Shown piece after piece: positions 27,041-53,323 of a stretch of DNA of 64,000 nucleotides; within the stretch, counting starts at the first letter, position 1, and every line of letters begins with the position of its first letter. The notes under the pieces are model-generated. The model was not told where the DNA came from. It did not search any database and worked only from the letters and a program-made list of their open reading frames with translations. The DNA comes from Naegleria gruberi. Its lineage: Eukaryota. The stretch is from the NCBI GenBank assembly GCA_000004985.1, contig GG738850.1; one strand, written 5' to 3'. Both the position numbers and the translations under genes were made by a program.

Positions 27041-28729
27041 ATGGGAACCCCAGATTGGGGTAATGATTTAACACTCAACTATGACACTTGCAATATTATG
27101 TCACTCACACAAAAACAATCAAAAAAAATGAGTAAACGAAATAGACAAGATTTGGAAAATCAATTAATTAATTATTCGGAGGAAAATAATATGGACGAGA
27201 AAGCAAAAAAGGTTTCAATGCAACGACAAGAAATATTTTCAGATGATGTTTGTTTTGAAATAATTTGCATGCTCGATGATTCGTGGTTTATTTTGAATAA
27301 TTGTTCATTGATTTCAAAACAATTCTTTAATGTGATCAAGGAACGTTCAAAACTTGTTATTCAATTTAATCAAAAATTTACAGAAACAAGAATTGAATTA
27401 TTCATGAAAAGTCAATTTATGAATAGTATTGTTCATCTTAAATTTTATAGAAGCTCGCTTGACTCTATAGAACAAGTCAAATTAATAAGTGAAATGAAAC
27501 AATTAAAATTACTTGATATTCGTGGAATTCAAATAGGAGATGAAGGAGCCAAATTTATAAGTGAAATGAAACAATTGAGATCACTTAGTATTTATAACAA
27601 TCAAATTGGTGTAGCAGGAGTCAAATCAATAAGTGAAATGAAACAATTAACATCACTTGCAATTTGTAACAATCGAATTGGTGATGAAGGAGTCAAATTT
27701 ATAAGTGAAATGAAACAATTAACGTCACTTACTATATGTTACAATCAAATTGGTGTTGAAGGAGTAAAATCCATAATTGAAATGAACCAATTAAAATCAC
27801 TTAATATATCTTACAATGAAATTGGAGATGAAGGCGCGAAATCAATATGTGAAATGAAACAATTAACATCACTTAATATATGTGACAATCGAATTGGTGT
27901 AGAAGGAATCAAATCAATATGTGAAATGAAACAATTAACATTACTTAATATATCTAAGAATCAAATTGGTGATGAAGGAGTCAAATTCATAATTGAAATG
28001 AAGCAATTAACGTCACTTGACATATGTTACAATCGAATTGGTGATGAAGGAGCCAAATCCATAAGTGAAATGAAACAATTGAAATCACTTGATATTTATA
28101 ATAATCAAATTAGTGATGAAGGAGTCAAATTTATAAGTGAAATGAAACAATTAACATCACTTGATATTAGTGCAAATGAAATTGGTGTAGAAGGAACCAA
28201 ATCAATATGTGAAATGAAACAATTAACATTACTTAATATATCTAAGAATCAAATTGGTGATGAAGGAGTCAAATTCATAATTGAAATGAAGCAATTAACG
28301 TCACTTGACATATGTTACAATCGAATTGGTGATGAAGGAGCCAAATCCATAAGTGAAATGAAACAATTGAAATCACTTGATATTTATAATAATCAAATTA
28401 GTGATGAAGGAGTCAAATTTATAAGTGAAATGAAACAATTAACATCACTTGATATTAGTGCAAATGAAATTGGCGTTGAAGGAGTCAAATCAATAAGTGA
28501 AATGAAACAATTAACATCACTTAATATTAATAACAATGAAATTGGTGATGAAGGAGCCAAATTTATAAGTGAAATGAAACAATTAACATCACTTAATATA
28601 TGTTACAATCGAATTGGTGTTGAAGGAGTCAAATTAATAGGTGAAATGAAACAATTGAAATCACTTAATATTAATTACCAAAAGACGAAATCTAAGGATT
28701 TGGTATGGATTACAAATGAGACTGCTTAA
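27041..28729 (+). CDS. F-box / RNI-like leucine-rich-repeat protein (about 18 tandem 24-aa LRRs)
   Basis: F-box region IFSDDVCFEIICMLDDSWFILNNCSLISKQFFNVI, followed by 72-nt (24-aa) repeats of consensus SEMKQLTSLDIxxNxIGDEGxKxI. The first ATG, at 27041, may not be the true start. Confidence 0.7.
   Translation: MGTPDWGNDLTLNYDTCNIMSLTQKQSKKMSKRNRQDLENQLINYSEENNMDEKAKKVSMQRQEIFSDDVCFEIICMLDDSWFILNNCSLISKQFFNVIKERSKLVIQFNQKFTETRIELFMKSQFMNSIVHLKFYRSSLDSIEQVKLISEMKQLKLLDIRGIQIGDEGAKFISEMKQLRSLSIYNNQIGVAGVKSISEMKQLTSLAICNNRIGDEGVKFISEMKQLTSLTICYNQIGVEGVKSIIEMNQLKSLNISYNEIGDEGAKSICEMKQLTSLNICDNRIGVEGIKSICEMKQLTLLNISKNQIGDEGVKFIIEMKQLTSLDICYNRIGDEGAKSISEMKQLKSLDIYNNQISDEGVKFISEMKQLTSLDISANEIGVEGTKSICEMKQLTLLNISKNQIGDEGVKFIIEMKQLTSLDICYNRIGDEGAKSISEMKQLKSLDIYNNQISDEGVKFISEMKQLTSLDISANEIGVEGVKSISEMKQLTSLNINNNEIGDEGAKFISEMKQLTSLNICYNRIGVEGVKLIGEMKQLKSLNINYQKTKSKDLVWITNETA
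27890..28470 (+). repeat. Near-perfect 288-bp tandem duplication (4 LRR units, 96 codons) inside the F-box/LRR gene
   Basis: The sequence at about 27913-28200 is repeated identically at 28201-28488 (offset exactly 288 bp). Identity decays only at the flanks. Confidence 0.85.
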
Positions 28730-28860
28730 TCAACCTCACACTTAAAATAACTATTAACATTCTTCCCAATATCTACGGTCAGGTTCTCGACGGAATTGCA
28801 ACCGATTGTGAATTATTTACATTGAGTAAGGTTTGAGGTTAATGAGAGGCTAATAATAAT

Positions 28861-28910
28861 AAAATAATAAAAATAGATTAGAATTATAAAATAATAAAAA
28901 TAGATTAGAA
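28861..28910. repeat. 23-bp direct repeat x2 (AAAATAATAAAAATAGATTAGAA) with 4-bp spacer, immediately upstream of the RCC1-like gene ATG
   Basis: Exact copies at 28861-28883 and 28888-28910. Confidence 0.7.
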
Positions 28911-28914
28911 AAAA

Positions 28915-30231
28915 ATGTCTGATGATCAACAAGAGGACCTTTCACCTTCCCGTCCGACTGAAAAAGAAGTAAAACCACCACCCCTTCGAAAATATGGCAA
29001 TTTGAATGATGTGAGAGAGGCTCATTCGTTCTATGCTGTAGGAAATATGGCAACAATCTTTGTTTTTATGGCACAGAATAATGCAGATAGTTTTGAATTG
29101 ATTGCGTTGGAGGGAGAACAATTTCCTGACGAGGTACGTGATAAGCGTGTGTCGTTGATCTTATCTGGTGGGAGAGCAAGTGGAGTTTATTCAATATTTA
29201 TGATTAGAGGATTGGAAAAGAAAGGTTTCTTGTTGGGAAAGGGAGTTGTGAAATATTTTACATACGAAAGGTTGATGAATGATGTGGATAGTTCAAAATC
29301 GAGGAGATTTAATCGATGTTTGGCTTGTTGTGAGGGATATGTAATTTTAGAGATGGAGGATGAGGAATTGTATATATTTGAAATTGTGGATGAAGTTTTA
29401 AAACCATTTAAATTGGAAAAAAAAGTGAAACTAATTGCTCACAATATGATGTCTAGCACTGTTGCTGTGTATTTTACAGATCATACTTTGAGGATTGTAG
29501 ATTTGACAAATGACAACAAGTTGGGAAATGAAATTGAGTTAATTAATAATTCTCCAATCAAAGTCTTGGCGAAATATGCAGCAGATTTATTTATTTTCGT
29601 TCATCAGGATGATTCCATGTATATTTATAGAAATGATGAGGAAAGTGATGGGTTTGTTAGTATTCCAGACAATGTCACTACTCAAATCAAAACTGAGTTT
29701 TCATCTCCAATCAAACAATTGGTTGCTGGTTATTCACATTTTGTTGTTCTACTTGAAGATGGAAAATGTTATACCAGGTAGGTTATTTTGTAAATGATAT
29801 AGTTGAATTGAATGCTAATTCTCTTTTAATAACCAAGAGGGATGAACAATTATGGTCAAATAGATGGTAAAATGGGTGGTGAGGGCTCTACAGTGACTCA
29901 TTTTCATCCAATTCTTCACAATATTGGAACAGTGCTCTCTGTGAATTGTTCTTCATTATCCACAACTTTGGAAACAGAAAGTGAAATAGTTCTTGTCGGA
30001 GAAGTTTCTCAAACATTCCAAAAGTTAAGTTATCCTTATTGTCAGGGAATGAATAGCTTTTGGGTTCATAGAAAAGAATTCTCAGATGAAACAACTAGCT
30101 TTGGACCTTGGCATGGATTTATTTATAGAGCTAGTTTCCATAATTTACCTTGTAAGACATTACAATATTTCAAAAATAATTTGAGAATGTTGGTAAAGGT
30201 TCCTAAACTTTCTGATATTTCCATTCAATAA
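28915..30231 (+). CDS. RCC1-repeat (regulator of chromosome condensation-like) protein; 2 exons (28915-29780, 29838-30231)
   Basis: A 57-nt intron (GTAGGT ... GCTAAT ... AAG) joins ...DGKCYT|R|GMNNYGQIDGKMGG, which is an RCC1 blade signature. ATG at 28915. Confidence 0.65.
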
Positions 30232-30380
30232 TTGCCTATTAAATTAATTTTACAGCTCCATAAATTTCAAAACTCAAATATTGCGGAAGAACTGTTAAGG
30301 TAAACAACTTACTAACCTCACTCTAACCATGCAAAAAGAGTTTTATTTTATTGTTGTTTTATTGATCATTCCAAAGAAAA

Positions 30381-32681
30381 TCATTCTTCATTGAGGTAAT
30401 TCCAATTGTGAGGATCTGAATTTGGACATTGTGAATTCAGGACAATCTTATCAAACTTTAAGGTGATCAATTGCTGATTAGAGTTAATGACATGCATGAT
30501 ATTTGGTTTAGTACAGAAAGATCCAAGTACCCATCCAACTGTTTGATTGGCCTTTTTGAAGGATAGTTCGTTGTGATCGAAAAGAAGAACGTGGCCCTTT
30601 CCTTCATCTCCAAATCCAAGAATGGCCACAGTTGAGTCATTGATTTCACAAGCTGATTGAGGTGTTGGATGAATTCTAAAGTTCTTTGCCTCAAATGCCA
30701 AAGTAGGAATTGATTTGTCTGGATAGATTATTTTCCATGTCTTTTTCTTTAAATCAAAACAATGAACTTTTGAAAATGATTTCGTAGAGTCACTACCACC
30801 AATTATCAAAAGTGAATTCTTTTCTGGCAAATGAATGGCTGAATGCTGAGAGAGGGGATCAGGTAAATCGTTATGATCCTCTTGTTTAATTTTCTCCCAT
30901 GAAAAAGATGATAAATTCAATAGATACATGTCGTTGAAATATTCGTAAGGACCTCCCTTACAGACTTGTCCACCAAATATCAATATACTATTCAACTTTG
31001 CTATGTAAGTTGCAGAGTGGAAGGCACGTGCAGATGGAACTTCTCCTTTGGTTTTCACATTAATGAGAGAGGCAGCATTGATATCATAGCAAATGACATC
31101 ATTGTACTGATATTGAGAATCAAAACCACCAAATATGAAAACCATATCATTGACACATGTGGCAGAGTGTCCCCACTTGGTTTCTGTGACAAATTTCCCA
31201 CTCGTATTCTTCAACTTTGGCACAGAAACATTTCCAGTATTTACATCAATGAATTGAATCATTTGTCCTGCGGTAGCTCTTGGTCCTCCAATTACAATAA
31301 TTGTATCTTTCCATTGACAAGTGCTTGAGAATATTCTATCACCAATGGCTGCATTATTTACAGAGCTAACAGAAGAAACGAGCTTTTGATTTCTTTGCTT
31401 GGTAGTTGGCAATCTCATAACTCCTCGTACTTTAGGTTGTCTAATATAGAATTCATCATCGCTTGGACATACATTTGTGGTATGATATCTGGACTTACAT
31501 GAACCACATTCCTTAATGGAGTAATAGTTTCTTGTTTGGCCACAAACCAAGTAATAATATTTGAAGAATTCAGGAGGTACTGGATAGAGTGTTTGTTTGG
31601 AACCATAAAATCCACCACCAGTTTCCAAAGTCCTTGGTAGATCGTCCAAAGATTTGATTTCTCCAACTGGTTCAGTACAATACAATGAAGATGGTCTACC
31701 AAATAAACCAACAGTGTATGAATCAGAATCATCAGAATCATCTCCAATCCACCAATAATTTAGAGAAATAGAATTTCCATCTGAGAGTACCATGTGTGGC
31801 CATCCTTTTGGGATGAACATAACATCACCAGGATTCAGTGTGACACGAACAGGATTTGATTTGAAAAAGTTAGGGAAATTCAGTGCGATTTCAGAAGGTT
31901 CCTTAGTGAGATCGATACGTGTTTGTCTATCACTGGTTGGATGATCTTCCTCATTGAGATAGAGTAAGGATTTTTCCTTTGGCTCCCATAAAATCATGTG
32001 TTTCTTTCCAAATATTTGAACGAATAAATTATCTGAATTATCATAGTGAATTGGTGTCAATGATTGATCAGAAGAAATCCACATATTTCTATAAAATTGT
32101 GAACTGCCAATCAATTGACTTTGTAAATTTTCCACATTTCCCAATTTTGATTTGGTTTGTTGTAATTGCCAAAATGCATCTCCCAACACCCGAGTGTCCA
32201 TTTGATAAATGTAGTGTTTCTCATTGGGAGAGAGGAGAAACATTGGTTCCTTTTGTAGCTGTCCTCTCGTTCCAAAGACAAACGAGAGAGCTTGTTCCAA
32301 ACTCATTGAAACAACCTTCCTTTGTGGCGATTGGACATTCTTATATCCATGTCCACCAGGAAACACACCATCAGTGGCAACATATAAATCAACTGTCTGT
32401 CCACCCACTTGTGATCCATAATCCTTCACCAAATCCATAAAATCCTTCATAAAACCATCAACATTAACCAATCCATCAGTCGACTGCTGATCAATCACAT
32501 GTGGTACAGCATGTAAGACCAATCTTTGCAAATTGATATTCTCTCCCCTTTTCTGTTCGGAATTGAAGGGATGAACAGAGAGTGGTTTGGCAGAACATTC
32601 GAGACCTTGCCCGGTGAATTGTTCTAAAAGCCATTTGGAGAGTGAGCTACTACCAGTAACACCTTGATTGGTTTGAACCAT
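30381..32681 (-). CDS. JmjC-domain (Fe(II)/2-oxoglutarate oxygenase) protein with C-terminal Kelch beta-propeller; TYW4/TYW5-like architecture
   Basis: 766-aa single ORF. The JmjC core, TPIHYDNSDNLFVQIFGKKHMILWEP ... NPGDVMFIPKGWPHMV, carries the HxD...H iron ligands. The C-terminal roughly 330 aa has Kelch-like blades (IFGG, VIGGP, LIIGG repeats). The N-terminal roughly 200 aa is unassigned. Confidence 0.65.
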   Translation of the reverse strand: MVQTNQGVTGSSSLSKWLLEQFTGQGLECSAKPLSVHPFNSEQKRGENINLQRLVLHAVPHVIDQQSTDGLVNVDGFMKDFMDLVKDYGSQVGGQTVDLYVATDGVFPGGHGYKNVQSPQRKVVSMSLEQALSFVFGTRGQLQKEPMFLLSPNEKHYIYQMDTRVLGDAFWQLQQTKSKLGNVENLQSQLIGSSQFYRNMWISSDQSLTPIHYDNSDNLFVQIFGKKHMILWEPKEKSLLYLNEEDHPTSDRQTRIDLTKEPSEIALNFPNFFKSNPVRVTLNPGDVMFIPKGWPHMVLSDGNSISLNYWWIGDDSDDSDSYTVGLFGRPSSLYCTEPVGEIKSLDDLPRTLETGGGFYGSKQTLYPVPPEFFKYYYLVCGQTRNYYSIKECGSCKSRYHTTNVCPSDDEFYIRQPKVRGVMRLPTTKQRNQKLVSSVSSVNNAAIGDRIFSSTCQWKDTIIVIGGPRATAGQMIQFIDVNTGNVSVPKLKNTSGKFVTETKWGHSATCVNDMVFIFGGFDSQYQYNDVICYDINAASLINVKTKGEVPSARAFHSATYIAKLNSILIFGGQVCKGGPYEYFNDMYLLNLSSFSWEKIKQEDHNDLPDPLSQHSAIHLPEKNSLLIIGGSDSTKSFSKVHCFDLKKKTWKIIYPDKSIPTLAFEAKNFRIHPTPQSACEINDSTVAILGFGDEGKGHVLLFDHNELSFKKANQTVGWVLGSFCTKPNIMHVINSNQQLITLKFDKIVLNSQCPNSDPHNWNYLNEE

Positions 32682-32839
32682 TTTTTTATTATTTAAAATT
32701 ATGTTGATCTTTGGCTATGAGAAAGATTTCGCAATGAAATTCTGCAAAAACGAATCACAGATTGGAACCAAGTTGGAAAAAGTTCACCGAGTCAGTGACG
32801 TGGTTGTTCTGTATTCATATCAATGGTTAATAATCTTTA

Positions 32840-33547
32840 TTACAAATTCTTTTGAATGGCTTCTCTCATAACCTTGATGGTTTGTTGAGGTTGAGGAGAT
32901 TTGAAAATTGCAGAACCAGAAACAACAACGTTAGCTCCTGCTTCAGCTGCTGGAACAATGGTTGTTTCAGTAACACCACCATCAACTTGAATATTCAAAT
33001 GTGGATACTTTTCACGTAAAATCTTGACTTTTTCCATTTGATCAGCCATAAAAGATTGTCCACCAAATCCAGGTTCAACACTCATAATTAAAATCATATA
33101 AATGGATTCAGTATGATTATCCAAAATAGGGAATAAAACATCAACTGGAGTCTTTGGTTTGATAGTAATTGAAGTTTTGCATTGTTTTCCTTGTTTTTCA
33201 TTTTCTTCTTTAATTAAATTCATAACTTTTAATGTAGATTCCAAATCACCATTTTCCGATTCGTAATGGAAAGTAATATTATCAGCTCCTGCTTCAATAA
33301 AATCATGAATCCATTTACTTGGATGAGAAACCATCAAGTGGCAATCCAAAAATCCCTTGGTATGTTTTCTCAATGATTTAACTACTGGTGCTCCGATAGT
33401 AATATTATTAACAAAATGACCATCCATCACATCAACGTGTAACCAATCGGCTCCGAAATCTAACATTTGATTGGAATCGGCAGCGAGAGTGGCAAAGTCA
33501 GCACTAAGAATTGATGGACAAATAATGGCTTGGAGTTGTTGAGACAT
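32840..33547 (-). CDS. RPE: Ribulose-phosphate 3-epimerase
   Basis: Colinear with RPE: PSILSADFA, LHVDVMDGHFVNNIT, MVSHP, VEPGFGGQSF, VDGG, and SGSAIF. Confidence 0.92.
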   Translation of the reverse strand: MSQQLQAIICPSILSADFATLAADSNQMLDFGADWLHVDVMDGHFVNNITIGAPVVKSLRKHTKGFLDCHLMVSHPSKWIHDFIEAGADNITFHYESENGDLESTLKVMNLIKEENEKQGKQCKTSITIKPKTPVDVLFPILDNHTESIYMILIMSVEPGFGGQSFMADQMEKVKILREKYPHLNIQVDGGVTETTIVPAAEAGANVVVSGSAIFKSPQPQQTIKVMREAIQKNL

Positions 33548-33681
33548 TTTTTTAGAATTAATTTATTAATTTATTAGAATATTGTGTTTAATTTGTTTAA
33601 TTTTAGAAGGCGAATTAGTAAACATTTTAGTAAATATTGTCGGTACGGGAAATAATTGTACAGTGTGATTTATTAATGAAA

Positions 33682-36359
33682 TTACAGTTTGTCGGATTGC
33701 AATGTGAAACGAGGGAAGTTAATTCTAGGATAAGGTGTTTGAGAGAGTTTGACTTTGGAGGCCTTCTTATTGGCAAGGAGTAGTGAGGCAACTTCCTTTT
33801 TCCAGTTGTCTGCTTCTTTTTGTAATCCTTCAAATTCTTCTAAAGCTATTGAGACATAGATAATTAAATCTTTTGGAATGTCGAGGGATGGATTGTCGCG
33901 TACGAGATCATTAAATGATTTGGAATCTGCCTGAACTGATTTAAGTGTTTGAATAAATGTTTCAACCTTGCTCTTCAAAACTCTAAAATAATTTTGTTTA
34001 AGGATATATTGAATTAAATTCTCAATACTTACAAATCAATTGATTCTTCAACTCTTTGGAATTCACTATCAACGGCCTCTTCAGCTTGTGCTTCCTTCTT
34101 CTTCTTTTTCAATATTGAGGATGATCTAATCTTTGATACAGAGCTGTAGGAAACAATAGACTCAATACTTGGACGAGTTCCAGATATTGAAGTTCTTCTT
34201 GGTTCCATATCCAAACTACGACGTATGCCTGTATCTTCAACTGAAACTATTGTTCTCTTCTTTTCATAGGCTGGTGGCGTAAGTGAGTTACTGTTAGATC
34301 TGTCTCTTCCAACTATTGGAGAACTTGGTTTATCCTTCTTAGGTTTGTCTTGAGGAATGGCAGAGAGTGGTGCAAATTCTGAAAATACTGACGAAGAGTA
34401 TCTTTGCAATTTGAAAAGAATAATTCTTTGGAAGATGCTTCTAATGTCTGCACTCCAATGAAGGAACAAGTGATAGAATCTATCTCTCAACAAGTCATGC
34501 CCAATAAATTTCATTCTTGCCCTTCCGTTGAACAAGTCCAGAATATTATACACGAAAATTAAAGTTCTCGAAACAATTTGGAAATGGTCTGTTTCAAGAA
34601 GTCTCGAAATTGCTGTTTCAAAGAACTCGAAATTGAAGCTATATCACAAATTAATTCTTGATTAAATTTTCTAGTATACTTACTTCTCAGGTAGTGAACC
34701 AATAAATAGTTCAATATTAGAGTCATTAGATTCCAAGTAGAAATAGGTATGTTGATGTTTTTGATTTCTGTACAGTAAATATTGTTGGAATTGGTGTTCC
34801 AAGTGTCTCACTTCTTCGAACCACTTGTCCGTCCAATCTAGAGTGTAGAAAACTTGATCGGGGTTATATCCGTTAGTGTTTGAGAAGAAAATTTCCATCA
34901 AAATGTTAATCACTCTAGGGTTACGAAGAGCAATCAGGGAGCATGACAACCATTGCTTAAATGCGATGGATTCGTGGCCATCCTCACCTCTTGCTGATTC
35001 TTCTAATCTTTGAATTTTTTGTTCTTGTTTGTTAGTTGTATCAGTTGATGAAACAATAGCATCGCTAAAGTTAATATTGATATGTTGTTTCAAATAAATT
35101 TCACCCAATTGAGTAAAATGAGTTACAAGAGTAGTATATCCGGGCACTAGTTGCCAATGTTTGTTTGATGTATCATGTTTCATAATCTTACTGATTTGAT
35201 CCACAAATTCTGAGAAGAAATAATTGAAAAAGTCGGCTGAAACCTTTGATGTTGGTACCCACACAGATGCATTCTTCATCCATTCACTCATCTTGATTAG
35301 AATAGACTTGGTATTTGGATCATTGAGTGGATCAATTTCAAAGAAGAATTTAAAGTAGCACAGAGCTGTCTTGAGTACGAATAATTTTTCCTCATCCTCA
35401 GCTGGCTCTTCTTTTGTCTTTTCTTCTTCATCTGAGTCATATTGTCCTAGAAGGGTCGAGAGACTGGTCATTGAAGGGACATACTTTAAGTTTTTAAAAG
35501 ACTTTTTCTTAATGTCCAAGTTAGTGTTCACAATATCAACAGTTTCAGGTTCCACAAAATCGGAATCAAATTGTTTCAAACAAAGGCTAGCAACAAACAT
35601 CTCAATTTGATCGACCGATAATAATCGGAAACAGTTTACGGCCAGAACAGAAGCACAAAATCTCATCAATTCAACAACGATATTTTCATGCTTCTTCGTC
35701 TTTAGTACTTGGTTGATGACGAAATCTTGAGTTCTCACCAGTAATTCCTTGTATTCCAATAGGACCTTCTTTGATAGTTCATCATTACCGTCGGATTTCT
35801 TCATAGATCCTAGTAAAGAGCTTAGGAAACCTTTCTTTTGTGGTTGGTTGTTAGGATTAAATGTTGGACTAATTTTCAAGAATGATAGATCTGTTTCTGT
35901 AGATGATGAGAGATCGGCACCAGTGTGTGATGGAGAGACCTCCTTTGTTATTTGATTCAAAATTAGGTTTTGGAAATACTTTGGGTGAAATTCTCTTCTC
36001 TTGATCAACAATAAAATTAACTTGTAGCAAGGTAATCTATAATTAATGCTGATCATATCTATTCTAATAATCAAATACTTCCACACATCCAGGAATAGCT
36101 GTGATGCTTGGAGTCTCTTCTTTGTAATGTTGTGTGTTTCTTCCAATCCAATAACTCCCACATTGTTATCAATTGTTAAACCTCCGAAATCAAATCTTGG
36201 ATCTTCTTGAAACATTTCCAAGAGTTGAGATAATACATTCTCTTGGATCGTTTGTGATGACAGTAATTGTTTACACAATTTCTCTTGCTTTCCTGTCCAC
36301 TTTACCAGAAAATCCCTTCTGCTGGTAAATTGTTGTGTAGGGTCTTCTATAGCGCTCAT
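33682..36359 (-). CDS. Large conserved hypothetical protein (about 860 aa), 3 exons (36359-34684, 34638-34033, 33982-33682)
   Basis: Real ATG at 36359 (MSAIEDPT...). Introns 34683-34639 (GTAAGT, 45 nt) and 34032-33983 (GTAAGT, 50 nt) link three ORFs in phase. Helical-repeat-like composition; no domain recognised. Confidence 0.45.
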
Positions 36360-36845
36360 CAAATTTAAAATTGACTAATATAAATATTAAAATATGATGA
36401 TGATTAGTCAAGATTGCCAAAGCTGCCTGATGATAGCAAATCTGATGATATGAAAAGAAAGGCTTTTTTTTATTTTTGGAATTTTGAAAATATAGGCCTT
36501 ATTTGTGAGTATGAAATGACTTCAACCTTCTCCGACCAGCCGTGATGCAACGGCTCTTTGGCATAATTATGGAAGACATTGATCCAATTTTAAATAGTGG
36601 TGTTTCATCAATCTTCCAAAGATTTTTGTATTGTCGCTAAAACCTTGTTGGCTGATATATATTGGTAGGAAATCATTCTTGTTATCAATTTACAAAGACA
36701 ACAATATCTCTGTTTGTGTAGAACGTTTGTTGGTATGAATTATATTGAATGTTTAGAAACCAATTAATTTCCCTTATCTCGGAACATTAACGAGGTCTGG
36801 GGTTGAAATTTTCTTCTTGAAATGCTTGAGTGATTAATTTGGTGC

Positions 36846-37874
36846 TTACAGTTGTTGATTGGTATTATTCATTCGTTGTAAATATTCGTTCAATCTGAGC
36901 TGAATGACAAACTTATTGAGATGATAGACAAAATATTCGTCAGAGTTTTCCATTTTGATTTCGTGAAGATCTTTGAGTTGAATCCAAGGTTTGGACTTTT
37001 CTATTGAGCTGAGCTTGTTCATGATCAGTTGATGGTATTCACTTCGTTTCTCTTCAGAGGGAAGATGATTTCTCACCTTCATTAATTGATCTCTTTCCTC
37101 AGAGCCATTTTCAAACCAGATACGTGGGGGTTTTCCTTGAATTAATCTCTCAGTTTCGTAACACAATCTTAGTGAGTGGTAGTAATTCTTTTGGTAACCT
37201 CGTTTGATTTTACCCTCTCCTTGTTGTAATTGTCTTTTAGCAAATGCACAATGAGATGAAATAACCTTCTTATTTAAGAATTGAATGTTTAACTTTTTCA
37301 AAGGTTCCCATTCTCTTGATTGATATTTATATGGGAAGAAATCTGGAACGAATAATGTTTGAAATACGAAAGGATTTCCATGTAGACACAATTCCAAATA
37401 TTTTCCAATTTCTAATTAATTATTAGATTAATCCAAATAATATAAATATTAATATTATTATTTTGTTGTAATTAATAGTAATAAATTAATAATAATTATT
37501 ATAATAAATAATGATCTGATCAAAGTACACAACCTACCAAAACATGAAATATCATTTCCATCCTTTGTTACGGTACAAATTCCCTTATCAGCCAAATTCA
37601 ACACCTTTGCCTTGGCACTTCCAATGCTACTAATATCAACATATGATAATTTTGGTTCATCAATAGAAAAAGAAGGCATTGATAGGAATTGCTCACACGG
37701 TAACATGTAAATCATGACAAAATCAAAATCACTCTTATTTTCATTCTTTAAATTGTAGAGTGTTGATCCGACAGCTGTGATGAACAGTAATTTAGCCTTT
37801 GGTGAAACATTTTCCTTCAGGAAATCCTCACCCATCAATTTGATAGAATTTTCATCGAATTGTTTGTTGTTCAT
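36846..37874 (-). CDS. Minimal nucleotidyltransferase-fold (Pol-beta superfamily) protein, 2 exons (37874-37538, 37411-36846)
   Basis: N-terminal LLFITAVGSTLYNL...SDFDFVMIYMLP matches the GS...[DE]h[DE]h nucleotidyltransferase signature. A 126-nt AT-rich intron, 37537-37412, has a GTAGGT donor and AG acceptor; phase verified (...DISCF|E|IGKYLELCLHG...). Confidence 0.45.
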
Positions 37875-37879
37875 TTTTT

Positions 37880-39480
37880 TTAATCAAATACCTAAACAGA
37901 AAAACCTTAGAGTACTTGGCCATTACCCTTGGGATGATACTTTGGTAACACAAGACATCCAATCCAAGATAGACAAATTCACAAAATCATTAAGATTTTT
38001 ACCATTATTCAAATTACAGCCAACAAACCTTAAAATAATTATGCATGCTAAAGCAATCAGCCTATTCACTCACCTCTCAAAAATCAATATAATCCCTTTA
38101 AAGAAAGCTCAGGAAATAGATCGTGCAATTAGAGGTGCAATCAGACGTAAATTATTAATGGACAGAGCAACTCCAACAAGTTTCTTTCACCTGCCATTAG
38201 AAGAAGGTGGATTAGGATTACCATCAATTGAGGAATTCTCTGAAAGAATGAATTTAAGAACTATGAATTTAATCGCCAATAATAAGAATAAGTTAATAAG
38301 AAAAGCTTTCAAACATGGTATCAAACATTGTGAGGAAACTAAAGATAATATTTATGCTAAATGGTTATCTGTACTTAAAGAATATAATCTCACATTTGTG
38401 CAGAATGATACGAAATTTAGAATAGCCAAAATTAAAACAGGGAATAGTTTCGATATCCATACAGATGGATCTAGAATTAATCAAAAGACAGGAATGGGTA
38501 TTAATATTTATGATACCTCAAATAGATCAGTTCCTTGTAAAACTTTATCCCTCAGAATCAATAATCATTATTCAAATAATATAGCCGAAATATGCTCTAT
38601 AATAACTTCTATTAATGTAATCCCACGAAACTCTAAAGTTACCATTCATACTGATAGTGAAGTTGCAATAGAAGTTCTCAAAGATAGATACAAAGGAGAT
38701 TTTCTAACATTAAAAGAAGCCTTCTTTAGAACAACCAAAAATAGAAAAATAGAATATGAAATTAAGAAAGTTGAAGCACACAAAGATAGCGAGAATATCA
38801 AGGTTGATTTAATAGCAAAGAATGCTACAACCAGAGATGATATTTTTGATATTCGTAATTTACTCAAGAATCAACACCTCCTTGTTAAGGATGGTGTTGT
38901 CATCTTCAATCATAAGAAGATGACCATAACAAGACATTTAAGTGTAAGACATAATAAGATGAATGAAAACCCTAACTTTATTCTAAACCAAAGTTGGTAT
39001 TCTCTTAATGTGCAATACCTTAAAACTCGTCTTACTCCTAAAACTAAATACTTTATATGGAGAAATTCCATCAATGCCCATATCAATTTTGGTAAGGGTA
39101 AAAGTTTCTGTTACGATTGTGGTACAGAATCTGATTTATTCCATTACATTCATGAGTGCCCTGGCTTGGATAGTGCCAGGTATTTTTGTCAGTCAAAGAT
39201 ATCTGATATTCTTGAAGGGAGAGAGTGCTTACTTTCTCATTTTCAATTCAAACCAGAAAAGCATCACCATGCATTACATTTCCATCATAACGGAATCACC
39301 TCTTTCGAAGATGGATACATGCAATTCCATAAAGACATCGCTAAGAAGTGGCCAGAGATCCAAGGTGCCATTTCTAACTTTGTCGGCCGTTCCTATTCTA
39401 ACTATTATATTGACTCCAAATAATTTATATAACCTATGAGAATCTGAATAGATTCGTTATTGTCGTAATAAAAGATTTTT
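37880..39480 (+). mobile_element. 5'-truncated non-LTR (LINE) retrotransposon remnant: ORF2 tail with RT thumb, RNase H and zf-RVT (CCHC-like) domains
   Basis: RT C-terminal/thumb region (KNLRVLGHYPWDD...LPLEEGGLGLP). RNase H motifs (HTDGS ... AEICS ... IHTDSE ... KVEAHKDSENIKVDLIAKNA). zf-RVT-like motif (PKTKYFIWRNSIN...CYDCGTESDLFHYIHEC). No catalytic RT motifs or endonuclease upstream, so the copy is truncated. The ORF-track coordinates 37777-37879 are read-through into the neighbouring gene, not element sequence. Confidence 0.65.
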
Positions 39481-39583
39481 TTTAATCAAATTCAACAACG
39501 AATCTTGTTATTTTTGGATTTATTACAAAATCTTGGAAAACCGATGATGTTCATTAAGGATATTCTTAATACTATAACAAGAA

Positions 39584-39654
39584 GCGTCGATGGTTTAGTG
39601 GTAGAATACGGCGTTGCCATCGCCGTGACCCGGGTTCAATTCCCGGTCGACGCA
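39584..39654 (+). tRNA. tRNA-Gly (anticodon GCC)
   Basis: 71-nt cloverleaf: acceptor GCGTCGA/TCGACGC, D-arm TGGTTTAGTGGTAGAATA, anticodon stem CGGCG/CGCCG with loop TTGCCAT, T-arm CCGGGTTCAATTCCCGG. Confidence 0.9.
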
Positions 39655-39662
39655 GCCATTAC

Positions 39663-40215: not shown

Positions 40216-40857
40216 TTATTTCTTTCCACAGAAAGTCATCTTATCGGTACGACATTCATTAAGTCTTTCCAAATTAATGAATTGAACATCTTGCTTACAT
40301 GAATTGGTTTGCCAAATACGTTTCTCTGACCAGGTTGAATTACATGAGATGGAGTAACTTTCAGCACCATTAGAAATGCATGTATTCAATGGAGTTGCAG
40401 CAATTGATCTAACAACATCATTTTTACAATCAACCTTTCCATTGAAATTAACATGTCTGAAAGTCCACAACATTGCTGGATAATCATTGAAATTGAAAGA
40501 ACCACATTCGATGGTGTAAGGTTGCTCTGGATCACTACAAGTTTCATCTGGAGTATAAATATTATCACCTTCGGTTTCACAATTAGAACAATTACTATTG
40601 CACGATGTTCCCCAGGTGTATCTGACCTTACCTGGAGCAATTTGTGTGCATTGGGAGATTGAATAGCCATAGGTTGGATCACTAGAAGGAACACACAGAT
40701 TCGTCTTCTCAGCATAGATAGATTGGACGGTCCCAATGCATGAAGAACTACCTTTAGCATAATATTTGAATTTCACATATTGATTGTCTTGGTGAGAGTG
40801 GCAGATGGTGATGGCCAAGAAGAGGGTGAGGAGCAAAAGGGAATTGAATAATTTCAT
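40216..40857 (-). CDS. Secreted Cys-rich protein (signal peptide MKLFNSLLLLTLFLAITICHS); pattern reminiscent of ponticulin-like Cys-rich proteins
   Basis: ATG at 40857, hydrophobic signal, more than 20 Cys, repeated Y..Y...C.G...C spacing. No C-terminal GPI or TM signal. Confidence 0.5.
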   Translation of the reverse strand: MKLFNSLLLLTLFLAITICHSHQDNQYVKFKYYAKGSSSCIGTVQSIYAEKTNLCVPSSDPTYGYSISQCTQIAPGKVRYTWGTSCNSNCSNCETEGDNIYTPDETCSDPEQPYTIECGSFNFNDYPAMLWTFRHVNFNGKVDCKNDVVRSIAATPLNTCISNGAESYSISCNSTWSEKRIWQTNSCKQDVQFINLERLNECRTDKMTFCGKK

Positions 40858-41150
40858 TGTTTTTGTTTTTTTTAACGAAGAGAATGCAAAGATAAGATTC
40901 GGCCAGTTTCGAACCGGCAAGAGCTGTTCCCTTCAGACTCTTTTGGCTGCCTAAAGCAGATAGAATTTTGTGTAGTGGAAGATAAGTTTGACAGCCCCTA
41001 TCTATTTCAAATTTGACTAGGTTACAGAGAAACACCACGCTTGCTAAGTGTTCACCACAACTTTACAATATTCGAATTTGTGGCTGTAGACACTTCCATT
41101 AATAAACAAGTCCATTGGCTGCATTTCAAATTAACTTAGCAACATGATGT

Positions 41151-41417: not shown

Positions 41418-41436
41418 TGATCATATCAGAGAGTTA

Positions 41437-44255: not shown

Positions 44256-44498
44256 ATGTGTTATCAAACTACTTGCAGGTAAGTTGTACCAAGAGAGTAC
44301 TTGTAGTACTATTATTGCTTAGTAAATGTGGAAAAAAAACCTGGGCAGGTAAGTCATCGAGCTCGGAACAATTCGTATTGAATTAATTTTAATTTTGATG
44401 ATTTGATGATGATTTATAAATTAGGATGTGGAATGCACAAGGAAAGTGTCATGTCTCAAATTAAACCAGAAGAAAGATGTGCTTGTCCTAGAAATTAA
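44256..44498 (+). CDS. Predicted spliced micro-gene encoding a 40-aa Cys-rich peptide (MCYQTTCSKCGKKTWAGCGMHKESVMSQIKPEERCACPRN); 3 exons (44256-44278, 44323-44348, 44425-44498)
   Basis: Two canonical introns, 44279-44322 (GTAAGT ... TTAG, 44 nt) and 44349-44424 (GTAAGT ... AATTAG, 76 nt), with exactly compatible phases give a stop-free 123-nt CDS. No homolog recognised. Confidence 0.35.
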
Positions 44499-45235: not shown

Positions 45236-48200
45236 ATGATCAATACAAATTTAAAAGGCAACAGCACCTCTTCGTTTGCTGAATCACCTACTGTTGCAAC
45301 AACGAGCAGTAATATGTATAATTCATCGAGAGAAATGGCTGGATTTCCTCTTCAAAAATTAGTTTTAGGAGAAGTAAATTCTCTCATTCTAGCCATGAGA
45401 AATATTCATTCAATGAGATATTCTAATAGATATAGATTTGTATGTATTGTTATTAGTTACAGCTTTGAATAATATTTTAAAAGCAATATGAAAACTTACC
45501 AAGACAAGGAGGAAATGAAAGTCCTGTCCTTGTGGGAATGAGAGCTTTACGAGAAAAAATCTGTAGTAACATTGGATGGCAATCCATGACTAGTTTGGAT
45601 ATTCTTCAACCTTTCTTTTCAATTATTAAATCGGAAGATACTGAAGGAAGAATAACATCAATGGCCTTACGATCCATTCAAAAATTATTGGAATCACCAA
45701 GTTTTATTTGTAGGTTTTATTGTTTTATAGTATTATTCTTAAGGTAAAAAAGCTCCTTTATCTAATTTAGAAGAAGCCAAGACGGCCATTCAAGAAATTG
45801 TTTCTGCTGTTCAACAATGTCAATTCGAGTTTAACTCTACTGATTCTACTTCATTGTCAGAATCGGGAGGACCTATTATTTTGGATCATTCTCTTGGAAG
45901 TGGACTTGGTTCTATAGCATCAGTTGTATCGGAGACTACACTTTTGGAATCTGTACTCATTCAAATAATTAATACATTCATGTGTTGCATTAAATGTGAA
46001 GCTGGATTTTTAATACCAGAAGAGATGATTCTTGAAATCTTAAAGAGTGTTTTGAGAATTGGAAGAGAAACAAGACCATGCACTGATTCCTTGAGAAAAA
46101 TAGCAGAAATGACAATGCAAGAAATTGTTAAAATTGTCTTTACAAGATATAAGAATATGGCTACCTCATCATCTCAGGCAGTCTATGGAGGAGAAAAGAT
46201 TTTTGAATTTATTTGCGACATGTGTGATATTTCTTCTAATACTTCAACTGAATCACCATCAACAGCAGCCATCAAATTAACTTCTCCTTCAACAGGACCT
46301 AATTCTGCTGGAGTAAATAGTATTGGTACTAGATATTTGGGAATTAGTCTTGCTTGTCATGCGATTGAGCTTATTGGAGATACCATTTCCAAAGATAAGA
46401 ATAACAAGATACTGAACATGATTTGTGATCAACTTTTTAGAGCCCTTTTGAGAAACACCAACATTTCCTATCAGACAATACTCTTTATGGCCAATGGTGA
46501 AATGATGTTCAGTCCAACTGTCCAATCTGGTATGGGGTCCTCCTCACCAATCACTTCTGCAGTTTTAATTGCTGCAAATGGTGGTAATTTACAACCAACC
46601 CATGCAAACTATGGCAATAACTTGATGCTCCTTTCTGCTGTTCTCAAATGTACCATATCCTACTTGGCAAGCTTACCTAATCTGAGATATTATTTGCATG
46701 AACAAATTGCTTCTATTCTCCTCACATTATTACAACATTTACCATCACCACAACAACAATACGGATCAAACAAGAAGAATTTTTCCAATTCTCCAATTTT
46801 AGGAAGTAATAGTAATATTTTCCTTCCATTCGAATTACAAGAATTAATTTTGGAATATTTGGTAGAAGTTTGTAGAGATTCAAACTTTATTACCTTCTTG
46901 TATAGAAACTATGATTGTTATGGATGCTTTGTAAAAAATAAGGATAACTTTATCGTCAATGTAAATACTATACCGAACCTTTTCGAACACATTTACCTCT
47001 ATTTGAATAGTTATATTGGACTAAACTCAAATTCAAACTCATCAAACAATAGCCAAAATAACTTCCATAATAGTGCTTCTATGGGAAATACATCAAGCCA
47101 ATTCAATAACTTTTCCAATCCTTCCTCATCTGGCTCTGGTAATTTGCATACTTTGCACGTGTTGGCATGGGTTGGCCTTTTGAGTGTTGTAAGGTGTCTT
47201 GCCGAACGATGCCAAGAACAACAAGAAAGTAGACAAACTTTGGACATGCAAATTGTTCACACTAAAATGTCAGAATTGAAAACTTTCAAAAAACAAAAGC
47301 ACAAGTATATGGAAATTGTTGCCCTTTTCAATAGTAGTCCACAAGAAGCCATAACACAATTATTGCAATTACACAATATTAGCATTCCAAAAGATTTGAC
47401 TCAATTCATCAAGAGTGACAGCTCAAACGAACAAGAAAGCACAACTGTCGACTGGAATGAGGCTATAGTTTTATTGCAAAGAGCTGCTGAAAAAATTTCT
47501 AAATTCCTTCTCGACTATAATATGTGGCTAGATAAGCAAAAAATTGTTGATTACTTTAATAGCTTCTCTTCTCCACCTAGTACAGTAGTGGATATTAAAG
47601 TAAATATGGGATCCATAGTAATACCAGAAGATCAACTCAATCACAACACTTATCTGATTCCAATTTTGAGTAAGACAAGAAAAGACCATCTCAGAAATGC
47701 CCTTCCTTTGGAAGTAATGAGACAATTTATGGATGGGTTTGATTTTTATGGAATGAGAATGGAAGAATGTATGAGATATTTCATTAATAGATGTAAGATT
47801 TCAGGAGAAGGACAACAAGTAGAAAGAATCATTAAACTCCTCGGTGAAAGTTACTACAGAGACAACAATACCCACTTTGCTTTGGAGAGAAATGATTCAA
47901 GCAAAAATCGTACCATACCAGCCATTCCTTACATTGACAATGGAGAACAAGCTTGGATTTTAGCTGTAGCTTTAATGCTCTTACACACAGATCTTCACCA
48001 TCAAAACAATAGAAACAGAATGAATTTGGCCGATTTTATGAAAACCATTGGATATCACGATGAGTTAAAGGGTATTCCTCAAGAAGAACTTCACAAAGTC
48101 TATCACTACTTATTGGCTAATGAATTTGAAGTCATGACAGGAATGACCGATGCCTACAAGACTGAAGCAATTTGGAAAGAAGTTATTGTTGACAAATCCT

Positions 48201-51200
48201 TTGCATATTATGATGAACATTTGAGTAACAAATCAGAAACCTCTGAAAATATCATTTCCTATGTTTATGATATGGACATGTTCCAAAGTATGTTTGGTCA
48301 TGTAATTCTTGCAACTACGACCATATTGGAACATACTGACGATATACAATTACTTGAATTGGCAATTAGAGGATTTTTGGATAGTGCTCGTGTTGCTGCA
48401 AGCTATCACTTGCATCATGTTTTTGATAACTTGGTCATTACTCTCTGCAAATTTACCACACTTATGGACGGTGTAACTCCACCTTCCATCTCTGCTGTTA
48501 GCTGTCCGAATACAAGTGAAAATACCACTTCACCACCAACATGGCCTCTCAATGCCAGTACTGCAACCTCAATTATGACTCATGATGGTGTTGTTATTTC
48601 AACAGTTAACAGTTCTGATCCTAACAGTTCAGCTTCTTCACCTTCTACAGCTCAAAGCTCTATTTCATCTAACAATAAGGGTGATGTTTCTCGTAACGAT
48701 AAGAATAGATCAATTCTCATGTTTGGCCACAATGAAAAGGCTAAATTAGCTTGTCGTACCGTGTTTGCCATCACTAGAAAATATGGTGATAATCTCAGAG
48801 AAGGTTGGAAGAATATTTTAGATCTTATCTGTAGAATGAGAGAATTGGAACTTTTACCAGAATCTATTGTTGAATCAAGACTTGTTCGTCAATTAAGAGA
48901 ATTCCAATTCCCATCTTCTAGTGCTGATTCTGCTAAACTTTCCTCTCCAAGAAAGGATAGTAATGATTCAACCATTTCCAGTGTTGCAACCAATCAACTT
49001 TTAACATCTGGTTCTTCCCTTTATAATCAAGTTATATCCAGTCTTTCAAAGAGTAGTACCAAGAAATCCAAGCCAAAATCTCAAAATGGAAGCAATGCTC
49101 CAATGAAGAGTGCAACATTCTCACTTCTCTCAACCATGTTTGGCGGCTTTTATGGCAGTGCTGACGACTCGAATAATGAAAAGAAGAAGAACTTGGACGA
49201 GGAATCTGATGATGAGGAAGAATATGAACAAGGACATGTCTCACAAAACTCTGAGGATGCCCACTTCTCTATTGAAATTAAACATGCTCTCGATGAATCA
49301 AGAAAGTGCATTGAACAATGTCGTATTGTAGAGTTATTAATGATGGATGCCAAGGAATTGAGTGGCAATTCATTGGAATACTTGTTGAGTGCCCTCATCA
49401 GAAATGGTAAGCCAGCAGGTATTTTAATGACCATGCACATTCCTGCTCCTCACTTGTTCACATTGAAAACAACCAAACAACAACAAAATGCAACTACCTC
49501 AACCTATTACTATTATGAAAGAGACTTAGATACTTCCCTCTTCTGTTTGGATTTATTGTGTGATGTTTTGATTAATAATAATTTGAATAGAAATACTGGT
49601 TGCGAAAGATTGAAACTTATTTGGAATTATGTTTACAGCCACGTTTACAAATTAATGATTTCCATTTTGCAATTATACCAACCAATCAGCACCATTCAAT
49701 CCATTTACCAAGTTAATAATGGACCTAATAGTGCTCCACCATCTGTAGGTTCATCCAATCCTTTCGGTACTAGTTCTGGTAGCGATAGAAACAGCCCACT
49801 CCCAGTAACAAATAATCAACCACTCAGAACAAGAATGACCAAGCAACATTACCACGTCTTGCAAAGATGTTTGACTTGTATTTGGAGATTGTGTATGGAT
49901 CTTTCTACACCATCTACCCAATTCAATAGTGTTGAAAATCAAGCAGAATGGGAGATTGTTCAAAAAGAAATGCTCTCTGTCCTTATTGATAACCTTGGTA
50001 AGCAATGGAGTGAAACTATGTTGGGTGTTTTCCATAATAGTTTACTTCCTATGATTCACATGTTCTTGTCGAGACAAGGTGAAACTCTACTCTCACCAAT
50101 GGCTACCAAATTCATTCAAGATCGTACAAATGCTACCAATCTTAATCCTTCCACAATATTTACTGATAGCTCATCAAGACTCATTGTAGATTTGTGGGAT
50201 CATTTAGTTTTCAAGATTTTGAGAAGTATTTCCAACGTTTCCTCCTCATGGATAAATAATAATCCTAATAGCTCACTCTTCACATCCATCAAACCTTCAC
50301 AACAATTACAATTAATTACCAGATCATTAGATGTACTTACTCTCAGTTTACAATACTCTACATTACAGGATGATACTACTCATTTCGGGTTATGGTTTGT
50401 TGTTCCTGATAATATCCCAACATTTGTCCAAAGTATCTTGTCCGTTTTGAGTTCTTCCATTACAACAAATGTAAATATTCAAAACACCTCCAATGGAAGC
50501 AATAGCTCCCAACAATTTGTATCCACCCTTAAAAAGCTTATGGCTCTCACAATGGACATTTTAATCATTTTGGAAAATTTGGTTATGGAAATTTTGAAGA
50601 GAATTGTATCCATTGCCTATTCATCTGCTAACTCATCCCAAAACGTCATCAAATTGGATAACAAGTGGATCAATGCTTGGCTTTCAATTCTTGAAGGTAT
50701 AGCAGTATTGTGTTGCACTGGTGGCATTAACACTAGTGGACCGGTCAATGTTCTGAACTTACTAATGTCACAATTGAATAATAGTCAAATTCAAATGTTG
50801 AGCCACCTCCAAAGAGATATTAGAACCCAAGCACTTTCAACCTTACAAAGATCTCTTGTTTATAGTTGTGATTTCAGATATTCATTCACTGCCAACCAAG
50901 AAGACTCACAAAATCTAAAATATCTCCTCAATGATCAACTCTTAATGATGTGTATGGATCGTGTATTGCTCAAGACATTTTTCCAAACTCTTCTCACACT
51001 CAAACCAAAGACAACTGAATATCAAACCAATCACAATACAGAAATGGATATTTCCTCTTTAGAAGAGCTTAGGGTCAGAGCCAACAACTTACTTGCTAGA
51101 ATATTCCTGCACTTTTTACCAAGAATGTTCCCTGTGAATAATACTGAAAGTCAACAAGATAATGGTTTCTCTTCATTGTGGCTCACCATTCTTCAAGTTA

Positions 51201-51577
51201 TGTACAACTTTTTACTCGTCAAACCAAAGAGTGATCATTTGAGGGAGGCTCTTCCAGAATTGTTGAAGAATATGATACTTGTAATGAATAATATTGAAGT
51301 ATTCAGACTTTCTCCAAAGTTGTGGGAGTTAACAGAGAAGGAACTTTCTCAATCTATTCCAACCCTTTTGGAAGATGTCAAACCCAGGATAATCAATACC
51401 ATGACACAACCTGCTGCTAACACTAACATTACAACACCTGTTGATAGTAGTGCCACAAGCAGTTCACAATCCAATGCAACTGCAAATTATACAACTGAAT
51501 CAACAGCCACCACAGCTGTTGCACAAGATGATAACCCAACAACATCAACCGAAACACCATTTAATTCACAACAATAA
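45236..51577 (+). CDS. GBF1/Gea-type large Sec7-domain ARF guanine-nucleotide exchange factor; 3 exons (45236-45439, 45484-45709, 45753-51577), about 2080 aa
   Basis: The N-terminal DCB region matches GBF1 (LVLGEVNSLILAMRN ... PFFSIIKSEDTEGRITSMALRSIQKLL). Sec7 core FYGMRMEECMRYFINRCKISGEGQQVERII...LAVALMLLHTDLHH. Introns 45440-45483 (GTATGT, 44 nt) and 45710-45752 (GTAGGT, 43 nt); phases verified. Confidence 0.85.
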
Positions 51578-51703
51578 AAGGAGTTCACACCTTAGGATAG
51601 AATGGGCAGAGATTTATAAATTGAGTAAAAAAAAAGAGTAGAATCTTAACAGTTATTATAATGAGTGTGAGGCAGAGTCTGGCCAAATCCTTTTTTTTGG
51701 ATT

Positions 51704-53323
51704 TTACTTAAACATCTGTTGGTTATGAATACTAAGTGATTTTAATTGTTTCATTTCACTTATTGATTTGACTCCTTCACCACCAATTTCATTGTAACAT
51801 ATATCAAGTGATGTTAATTGTTTCATTTCACTTATGAATTTGGATCCTTCAGCACCAATTCGATTCTTAGATATATTAAGTGATGTTAATTGTTTCATTT
51901 CACTTATTGATTTGACTCCTTCATCACCAATTCCATTTCCACCAATATTAAGTGATATTAATTGTTTCATTTCACTTATAAATTTGACTCCTTTATCACC
52001 AATTTCATTGTAACATATATTAAGTGATTTTAATTGTTTCATTTCACTTATTGATTTGACTCCTTCAACACCAATTTGATTGTTATAAATATAAAGTGAT
52101 GTTAATTGTTTCATTTCACTTATTGATTTGACTCCTTCAACACCAATTTCATTGTTATAAATATTAAGTGATGTTAACTGTTTCATTTCACTTATATATT
52201 TGGATCCTTCATCACCAATTTCATTTCCACCAATATCAAGTAATTTTAATTGTTTCATTTCACTTATAAATTTGGCTCCTTCATCACCAATTCCATTTCC
52301 ACTAATATCAAGTGATGTTAATTGTTTCATTTCACTTATTGATTTGACTCCTTTATCACCAATTCCATTTCCACTAATATCAAGTGATGTTAACTGTTTC
52401 ATTTCACTTATTGATTTGGCTCCTTCATCACCAATTCGATTGTTATAAATACTAAGTGATGTTAATTGTTTCATTTCACTTATTGATTTGACTCCTTCAT
52501 CACCAATTCGATTTTCACCAATATTAAGTGATGTTAACTGTTTCATTTCACTTATATATTTGGATCCTTCATCACCAATTTCATTTCCACCAATATCAAG
52601 TAATTTTAATTGTTTCATTTCACTTATAAATTTGACTCCTTTATCACCAATTCCATTTCCACTAATATCAAGTGATGTTAACTGTTTCATTTCACTTATT
52701 GATTTGGCTCCTTCAACACCAATTTCATTGTTATTAATACTAAGTGATGTTAATTGTTTCATTTCACTTATTGATTTGGCTCCTTCATCACCAATTCGAT
52801 TGTTATCAATATTAAGTGATGTTAATTGTTTCATTTCACTTATATATTTGGATCCTTCATCACCAATTTCATTTCCACCAATATCAAGTGATGTTAATTG
52901 TTTCATTTCACTTATGAATTTGGCTCCTTCAGCACCAATTCGACTGTAACATATATCAAGTGATGTTAATTGTTTCATTTCACTTATTGATTTGGCTCCT
53001 TCATCACCAATTTGATTTTCACCAATATCAAGTAATTTTAATTGTTTCATTTCAGTTATGAATTTTACTTGTTTAGAGTCAAGCAACCTTCTCGAAAATT
53101 TAAGATGAACAATACTATTCATAAATTGACTTTTCATGAATAATTCAATTCTTGTTTCTGTAAATTTTTGATTAAATTGAATAACAAGTTTTGAACGTTC
53201 CTTGATTACATTAAACCATTGTTTTGAAATCAATGAACAATTATTTAAAATAAACCACGCATCATCGAGCATGCAAATTATTTCAAAACAAACATCATCT
53301 GAAAATATTTCCCTCTCCTCCAT
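51704..53323 (-). CDS. F-box / RNI-like leucine-rich-repeat protein, paralog of 27041-28729 in inverted orientation
   Basis: ATG at 53323. The first roughly 100 aa (MEEREIFSDDVCFEIICMLDDAWFILNNCSLISKQWFNVIKERSKLVIQFNQKFTETRIELFMKSQFMNSIVHLKF...) are nearly identical to the + strand paralog at both protein and DNA level. Followed by about 19 x 24-aa LRRs with internal multi-repeat duplications. Confidence 0.75.
   Translation of the reverse strand: MEEREIFSDDVCFEIICMLDDAWFILNNCSLISKQWFNVIKERSKLVIQFNQKFTETRIELFMKSQFMNSIVHLKFSRRLLDSKQVKFITEMKQLKLLDIGENQIGDEGAKSISEMKQLTSLDICYSRIGAEGAKFISEMKQLTSLDIGGNEIGDEGSKYISEMKQLTSLNIDNNRIGDEGAKSISEMKQLTSLSINNNEIGVEGAKSISEMKQLTSLDISGNGIGDKGVKFISEMKQLKLLDIGGNEIGDEGSKYISEMKQLTSLNIGENRIGDEGVKSISEMKQLTSLSIYNNRIGDEGAKSISEMKQLTSLDISGNGIGDKGVKSISEMKQLTSLDISGNGIGDEGAKFISEMKQLKLLDIGGNEIGDEGSKYISEMKQLTSLNIYNNEIGVEGVKSISEMKQLTSLYIYNNQIGVEGVKSISEMKQLKSLNICYNEIGDKGVKFISEMKQLISLNIGGNGIGDEGVKSISEMKQLTSLNISKNRIGAEGSKFISEMKQLTSLDICYNEIGGEGVKSISEMKQLKSLSIHNQQMFK

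Follow-up and report, generated by a model that had tools for sequence, protein, structure and literature searches.

An inverted pair of F-box-like/leucine-rich repeat paralogues on either side of a 23-kb block in Naegleria gruberi

Proteins in which an F-box is joined to leucine-rich repeats (LRRs) are known from several settings. The FBXL-type substrate receptors of Skp1-Cullin-F-box (SCF) complexes, including Skp2, FBXL17, FBXL5, and the plant proteins TIR1/COI1, have canonical LRRs of about 26 residues that contain cysteine, and the GALA (RipG) proteins of Ralstonia combine an F-box with LRRs of 24 residues. Long inverted repeats that flank gene-containing blocks have also been described; the int22h copies at human F8 and the emerin/filamin repeats, for example, typically span from several kb to tens of kb and are more than 99% identical. 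Both subjects bear on two genes of Naegleria gruberi, which lie on contig GG738850.1 (assembly GCA_000004985.1) within a stretch of 64,000 nucleotides, referred to here as the window. Gene A (27041-28729, + strand) and gene B (51704-53323, - strand) face each other about 23 kb apart, and each encodes an F-box-like head followed by an array of ribonuclease inhibitor (RI)-type LRRs. The two are probably an ordinary young inverted paralogue pair within a lineage-specific family of such proteins, accounted for by one duplication together with selection and turnover of repeat units.

Anatomy of the pair and limits of homology

Genes A and B are the sole long repeat of the window, and masking them leaves no other repeat. 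In their best alignment, in which 27230-28685 (+) pairs with 53311-51715 (-), they are 86.7% identical over 1448 columns. The initial annotation had described an inverted pair of near-identical genes sharing a 5' region that runs into the same 72-nt LRR unit; the arrangement was borne out by alignment with both strands read, while near-identity applies to the head and not to the genes as a whole. In the head, 233 of 245 positions are identical (95%), with nine mismatches and a 3-nt indel (96.2% over 238 nt by BLAST). Its core has five mismatches in 217 nt (97.7% identity), and it contains the longest perfect tract shared by the two genes, 112 nt at 27335-27446 and 53206-53095. The LRR arrays show 83-87% identity, essentially independent of the register in which they are aligned.

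The homology begins abruptly, at 27230 in A and 53311 in B, which is 12 nt 3' of the B start codon and 189 nt inside the longest open reading frame (ORF) of A. The regions upstream of these positions show no similarity to each other above shuffled controls (score 25 vs 24.6 +/- 3.1), and the flanks of the two genes have nothing in common. The shared part had been taken as the first 300 nt of both coding sequences, which is incorrect for A, as its 189-nt 5' ORF segment is absent from B; the string originally quoted as common to both is found in A from 27227, with its reverse complement in B at 53311 from 'gaaatatttt' on. At the other end, the 3' tails remain homologous for about 35-90 nt beyond the arrays, as far as about 28765 in A and about 51640 in B. 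These tails are short and interrupted by several indels (local score 36 vs 19.6 +/- 2.4 for shuffles). Since only the gene bodies are repeated and the flanks are unrelated, the duplicated unit is the gene body, of about 1.5 kb.

The longest ORF of A (27041-28729, +) encodes 562 amino acids, comprising the F-box-like head and 17 RI-type LRR units. Its 5' extension (27041-27229) has no counterpart in B but includes a KRNRQDLEN motif in common with NAEGRDRAFT_64117 (here P0121), a protein encoded on another scaffold that is the next-closest paralogue found. Judging from this sequence, the true start of A is probably the methionine at 27128 (MSKRNRQDLEN...), in agreement with the annotated start of P0121, which would shorten the A-specific segment from 189 to 102 nt. 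The head core (27230-27446), whose 72 codons cover the divergent F-box and the helices that follow it, pairs with 53311-53095 of B. In the linker to the first LRR (27447-27474) divergence jumps, with seven substitutions and a 3-nt indel. The array itself (27475-28672) is built of 72-nt units, 16.6 copies by Tandem Repeats Finder (TRF), with a higher-order period of 288 nt. Within it, at 27910-28473, lies a perfect tandem duplication of 276 nt (27910-28185 = 28198-28473), four units apart and absent from B. The C-terminal tail and the start of the 3' untranslated region (UTR), at 28673-28765, are homologous to the B tail, with indels.

Gene B (51704-53323, -) has an ORF of 539 amino acids, made up of four unique codons (MEER), the head, and 19 LRR units. 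The array (51734-53069, -; 18.4 copies by TRF) has perfect repeats of its own, of 115 nt (five units apart) and 86 nt (four units apart), and the tail with the start of the 3' UTR, homologous to that of A, occupies 51640-51733 (-). The head core (53095-53311, -) has the family-typical SKQW in place of the SKQF of A and P0121. Of the five head-core mismatches, three fall within 11 nt (27324-27334 in A, 53207-53217 in B) and change the SKQFF of A and P0121 to SKQWF, which is found in B and in 19 of 22 family heads. B could have retained or regained this canonical F-box tryptophan although A looks ancestral elsewhere, either by micro-conversion from another paralogue or by a selected change.

Relationship, divergence, and origin of the copies

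Among the family members recovered from a library clustered at 50% identity, neither A nor B has a closer relative than the other. Across the 72 residues of the head core they agree at 70 positions, whereas A and P0121 agree at 62 and B and P0121 at 60; the remaining 19 family heads are 31-45% identical to B. The initial annotation had itself held that its proposal of recent duplication would be weakened if the pair were no closer than other family members, and the duplication can accordingly be called fairly recent, at a synonymous divergence of about 0.05-0.13. Because A and P0121 share the N-terminal KRNRQDLEN extension, which B does not have, we infer that B is the derived, 5'-truncated copy and that A is ancestral-like.

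The divergence between the copies was divided into synonymous and non-synonymous parts by Nei-Gojobori counts (proportions pS and pN), and selection was read from pN/pS as a descriptor. In the head core, pS is 0.054 (2 differences in 36.8 sites) and pN is 0.017 (3 in 179.2 sites). The linker, the first unit, and the last 1.7 units, where loss of orthology is least likely, give a pS of 0.126 and a pN of 0.111, the ten nearest A-B unit pairs give 0.084 and 0.083, and the collinear arrays give 0.19-0.22 and 0.13-0.15. The contrast between head and array is clear at non-synonymous sites (3/179 vs 20.5/184 sites, p = 2e-4; p = 1e-3 in another contrast). At synonymous sites the head is not distinguishable from the edge units (p = 0.28) or from the nearest pairs (p = 0.74); the one synonymous contrast to reach significance is that with the collinear arrays (pS of 0.21, p = 0.023).

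The collinear arrays are a poor yardstick for this purpose. No pair of units, one from A and one from B, is closer than 4 differences in 72, and the nearest neighbours are scattered rather than lying along the diagonal. Together with the duplications inside each array, this scatter indicates that collinear units are not orthologous. The 276-nt duplication in A is longer than any perfect tract shared by A and B, so turnover of array units postdates the split of the two genes. Among the 30 distinct units, the scaffold codons do not vary, silent sites included (e.g., ATA, GAA, CTT, and AAA in 30 of 30), and codons 11, 13, 14, 16, 19, 22, and 24 of the unit have pN values of 0.26-0.60.

These observations are consistent with a simple history. 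A gene-sized segment of about 1.5 kb, reaching from codon 64 of an A-type ORF to a point a few tens of nt beyond the stop codon, would have been copied 23 kb away in inverted orientation, and the copy, B, would have lost the basic N-terminal extension and taken a new ATG. After the split, at the synonymous divergence given above, the head would have been held under purifying selection, and the linker and LRR units would have gained amino-acid changes at an omega near 1 or above, most of them at the x residues of LxxLxLxxNxIG, which are exposed. Each array would also have been separately reshuffled by unequal exchange of blocks of 4-5 units. Such independent reshuffling means that a collinear alignment pairs non-orthologous units and reads about 85%. 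We infer selection as the cause of the gradient along the genes. More generally, a step in identity along repeat-containing paralogues can reflect selection and lost unit orthology instead of gene conversion.

Gene conversion could nevertheless produce such a step. The duplication would then be older, at a synonymous divergence of about 0.2, and recent conversion between A and B would have homogenised the head alone (27230-27446). Three observations weigh against a single duplication with selection and in favour of this history: divergence steps from 2.3% to more than 10% at 27447, the pS of the head is significantly below that of the collinear arrays, and the 3' tails are full of indels. Given the sharpness of the step and the small number of silent sites, a conversion tract in the head keeps some probability, but we consider it unlikely. 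The collinear units that supply the high synonymous values are demonstrably non-orthologous, the synonymous difference vanishes when edge units or nearest pairs are used, and the gradient is chiefly non-synonymous. In addition, the supposed tract stops on its left where homology as a whole stops, which is what a duplication breakpoint would produce. The ongoing gene conversion first suggested for this pair is thus unneeded, as the head/array contrast is non-synonymous and the arrays have been remodelled independently.

Other origins of the pair were weighed as well. B might be a retrocopy: mRNA of an A-like gene would have been reverse-transcribed, incompletely at its 5' end, and integrated by the machinery of a non-long terminal repeat (non-LTR) retroelement. 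The transcribed body alone was copied, truncated at its 5' end and with the start of its 3' UTR, and a non-LTR remnant with an RNase H domain lies inside the block between the genes. However, the homologous tail of B is not followed by a poly(A) tract (the sequence there is ...GATTCTACTCTTTTTTTTTACTC), and a target-site duplication was likewise not seen at B, making this origin improbable. A comparably low probability attaches to the proposal that A and B were once adjacent tandem copies that a rearrangement later moved apart and set in opposite orientation, perhaps an inversion that broke the DNA between them, in which case today's arrangement would itself result from an inversion. Compared with N. 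lovaniensis and N. fowleri, this part of the genome has been extensively reshuffled, with only RlaP-DUF1765-RPE (32843-37421, about 5 kb) collinear, and in neither species is there an LRR gene within 10 kb of RPE (ribulose-phosphate 3-epimerase); but no direct evidence supports such a rearrangement, and it leaves the sharp truncation of B inside the coding sequence unexplained. An assembly artefact, whether a collapsed or misjoined repeat or a pair of haplotigs, has nothing in its favour except that LRR arrays are hard to assemble in general, and is scarcely credible for copies that differ by about 13% and have distinct unit numbers, 5' ends, and tails as well as unique flanks. Duplication of the gene body, with selection and unit turnover, therefore remains our preferred account.

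Domains, fold, and gene family

The ORFs of A and B are both intact, and no introns are evident in either. Units containing 'EMKQL' number 17 in A and 19 in B and recur at an exact spacing of 24 codons. They match Pfam LRR_6 (PF13516) with E = 3.7e-73 in A and 3.3e-89 in B, and these RI-type LRRs form the C-terminal three quarters of each protein. The predicted model has an alternation of strand and helix every 24 residues in a regular solenoid, with predicted local distance difference test (pLDDT) values of 84-94 in the LRRs; in this single-sequence AlphaFold2 model the head is unreliable (pLDDT 42-54). The best Foldseek match to the model was an axonemal doublet-microtubule LRR protein (8j07), followed by the LRR domain of Ralstonia RipG4, with Legionella LegL1 in fourth place. 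NOD2, NLRP3, FBXL17, and ribonuclease inhibitor were also matched, and E ranged from 6e-9 to 6e-6 for these four and RipG4.

The nature of the head is less apparent from the two genes than from their relatives. Compared with the F-box profiles (Pfam PF00646 / PF12937), the head of B scores 12.6 bits (E = 0.12), below the cut-off of 24.3 bits, and the head of A gives no F-box profile match even at E <= 10. Among 22 aligned family heads, however, 16 match F-box-like and 16 match F-box at E <= 1, the best values being 3.3e-6 and 8.9e-6. A profile search of the PDB aligned head residues 4-40 weakly with the F-box of FBXO42 (E = 1.7), and Foldseek with an alignment-based model of the head found no match. 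On this sequence evidence we accept the head as a putative divergent F-box at the level of the family, by transitive homology, and not for A or B alone; the F-box assignment made initially for the two genes stands in this restricted form. The A and B proteins most likely act as SCF-type substrate receptors, with the head predicted to dock on Skp1 and the LRR horseshoe to recognise targets.

In 1.84 billion representative proteins scanned with HMMER, a library whose clustering at 50% identity limits the resolution of close paralogues, this head is combined with downstream LRRs in 21 clusters. At least 10 of these are N. gruberi proteins from other scaffolds, and the rest come from metagenomes or sequencing-run assemblies. 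A word-indexed protein search was much less productive, giving nothing with the B head and one protein with the 22-sequence head alignment. The products of A and B were not returned from this word-indexed database, which does contain other N. gruberi proteins. Public annotation may lack the two genes or model them differently, or repetitive proteins of this kind may be left out of the index. When JGI metagenome contigs were scanned with head patterns, none of 331 pattern matches was confirmed. On a Logan contig, a distant family member occurs as one short F-box/LRR gene outside any cluster.

No published description of a Naegleria F-box-like/LRR family was found in the literature. The public names of the family members examined here are 'predicted protein', 'leucine-rich repeat protein', and 'LRR_RI domain-containing protein', none of which mentions an F-box. 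Counts of F-box proteins in Naegleria that use such names, or single-sequence Pfam thresholds, could therefore miss this family.

The intervening block and comparison with known systems

Between the two genes lies a unique block of about 22.9 kb (28766-51639), which is free of internal repeats and resembles neither outer flank; the window has a GC content of 29-37% along its length. The genes within the block largely agree with the initial list: a weak RCC1 match, a JmjC/cupin-Kelch gene, RPE, a nucleotidyltransferase (identified by synteny with RlaP), a retroelement remnant, tRNA-Gly(GCC), a Cys-rich ORF, a kinase, and an Arf-like GTPase. A DUF1765 gene is also present. The ORF that adjoins B, of 1907 amino acids, is the candidate GBF1 gene of the initial list. 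The RPE ORF (32840-33547, -) matches the N. gruberi protein at 100% identity along its whole length, is 77-79% identical to those of N. lovaniensis, N. fowleri, and Willaertia, and has a metagenome relative at 80%. In N. lovaniensis and N. fowleri, genes for a primase, a PHD protein, and one other protein stand between RlaP and DUF1765; these are absent here, and microsynteny within the genus is very short. As only about 5 kb is collinear, the 23-kb block is not a conserved unit and is uninformative regarding past inversions, dating, or orientation.

The non-LTR remnant is a 548-aa ORF with an RNase H match (E = 6e-11) that ends about 160 nt upstream of tRNA-Gly(GCC), on the same strand (37777-39654), and it overlaps the RlaP-like nucleotidyltransferase gene in the latter's 5' ORF. 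The tRNA gene (39584-39654) is the only one in the window, and the position of the remnant beside it is reminiscent of the tRNA-targeted retroelements of Dictyostelium. The Cys-rich ORF (40216-40920, 234 amino acids) has a signal-peptide-like N-terminus and no Pfam match at E <= 0.001.

With the int22h and emerin/filamin repeats, A and B share an inverted orientation on one chromosome, kilobase length, and a gene-containing block between them. They differ in the quality of the homology: recombination-competent inverted repeats have long, kilobase-scale tracts above about 95-97% identity, and here there is only 86.7% over 1.45 kb (1448 columns), rising to 97.7% in the best 217 nt, and the longest perfect tract is 112 nt. 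Rare non-allelic homologous recombination between A and B that inverts the block, as initially suggested, would be possible in principle, although the pair appears to be a poor substrate beside known inversion-mediating repeats. A more elaborate proposal, in which crossovers between the arrays flip the 23-kb block and swap distal array segments, creating chimeric receptors and shuffling the repertoire, is very improbable. If it were true, it would constitute a eukaryotic, recombination-based diversification of SCF substrate receptors, possibly in defence against intracellular bacteria or giant viruses.

In architecture, A and B are like the FBXL-type SCF receptors, but their repeats belong to a different class. 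The units are exactly 24 residues long, nearly identical to one another, and of the RI/LRR_6 type (IGDEGAK, RI/GALA-like), so that they lack the canonical FBXL form. The heads of A and B are too divergent to reach the Pfam threshold, and their binding of Skp1 is a prediction. The closer likeness in repeat length is to the Ralstonia GALA/RipG proteins, and the LRR domain of RipG4 and Legionella LegL1 were the second and fourth structural matches to the model. GALA/RipG and LegL1 are bacterial effectors that mimic host proteins, whereas A and B are chromosomal eukaryotic genes of a lineage-specific family, and the relation shown is one of fold.

The growth of the family recalls systems of another kind. 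Like the LRRs of plant resistance (R) genes and nucleotide-binding LRR (NLR) proteins, and like F-box expansions, the fast-evolving genes A and B combine variation at exposed LRR positions on a homogenised scaffold with changes of unit number by unequal exchange. For A and B selection is read from pN/pS descriptors, and the Naegleria family is not known to be linked to immunity or to any substrate. On its own, the pair has little significance. It serves as an example of the lineage-specific growth of an F-box/LRR family, in which a gene-sized copy keeps a constant adaptor-binding head while its LRR surface diversifies, both through substitutions at exposed sites and through gain and loss of units. 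In this it resembles the F-box expansions of C. elegans and plants and the R-gene/NLR LRRs of plants, which likewise have many paralogues per genome and young local duplicates.

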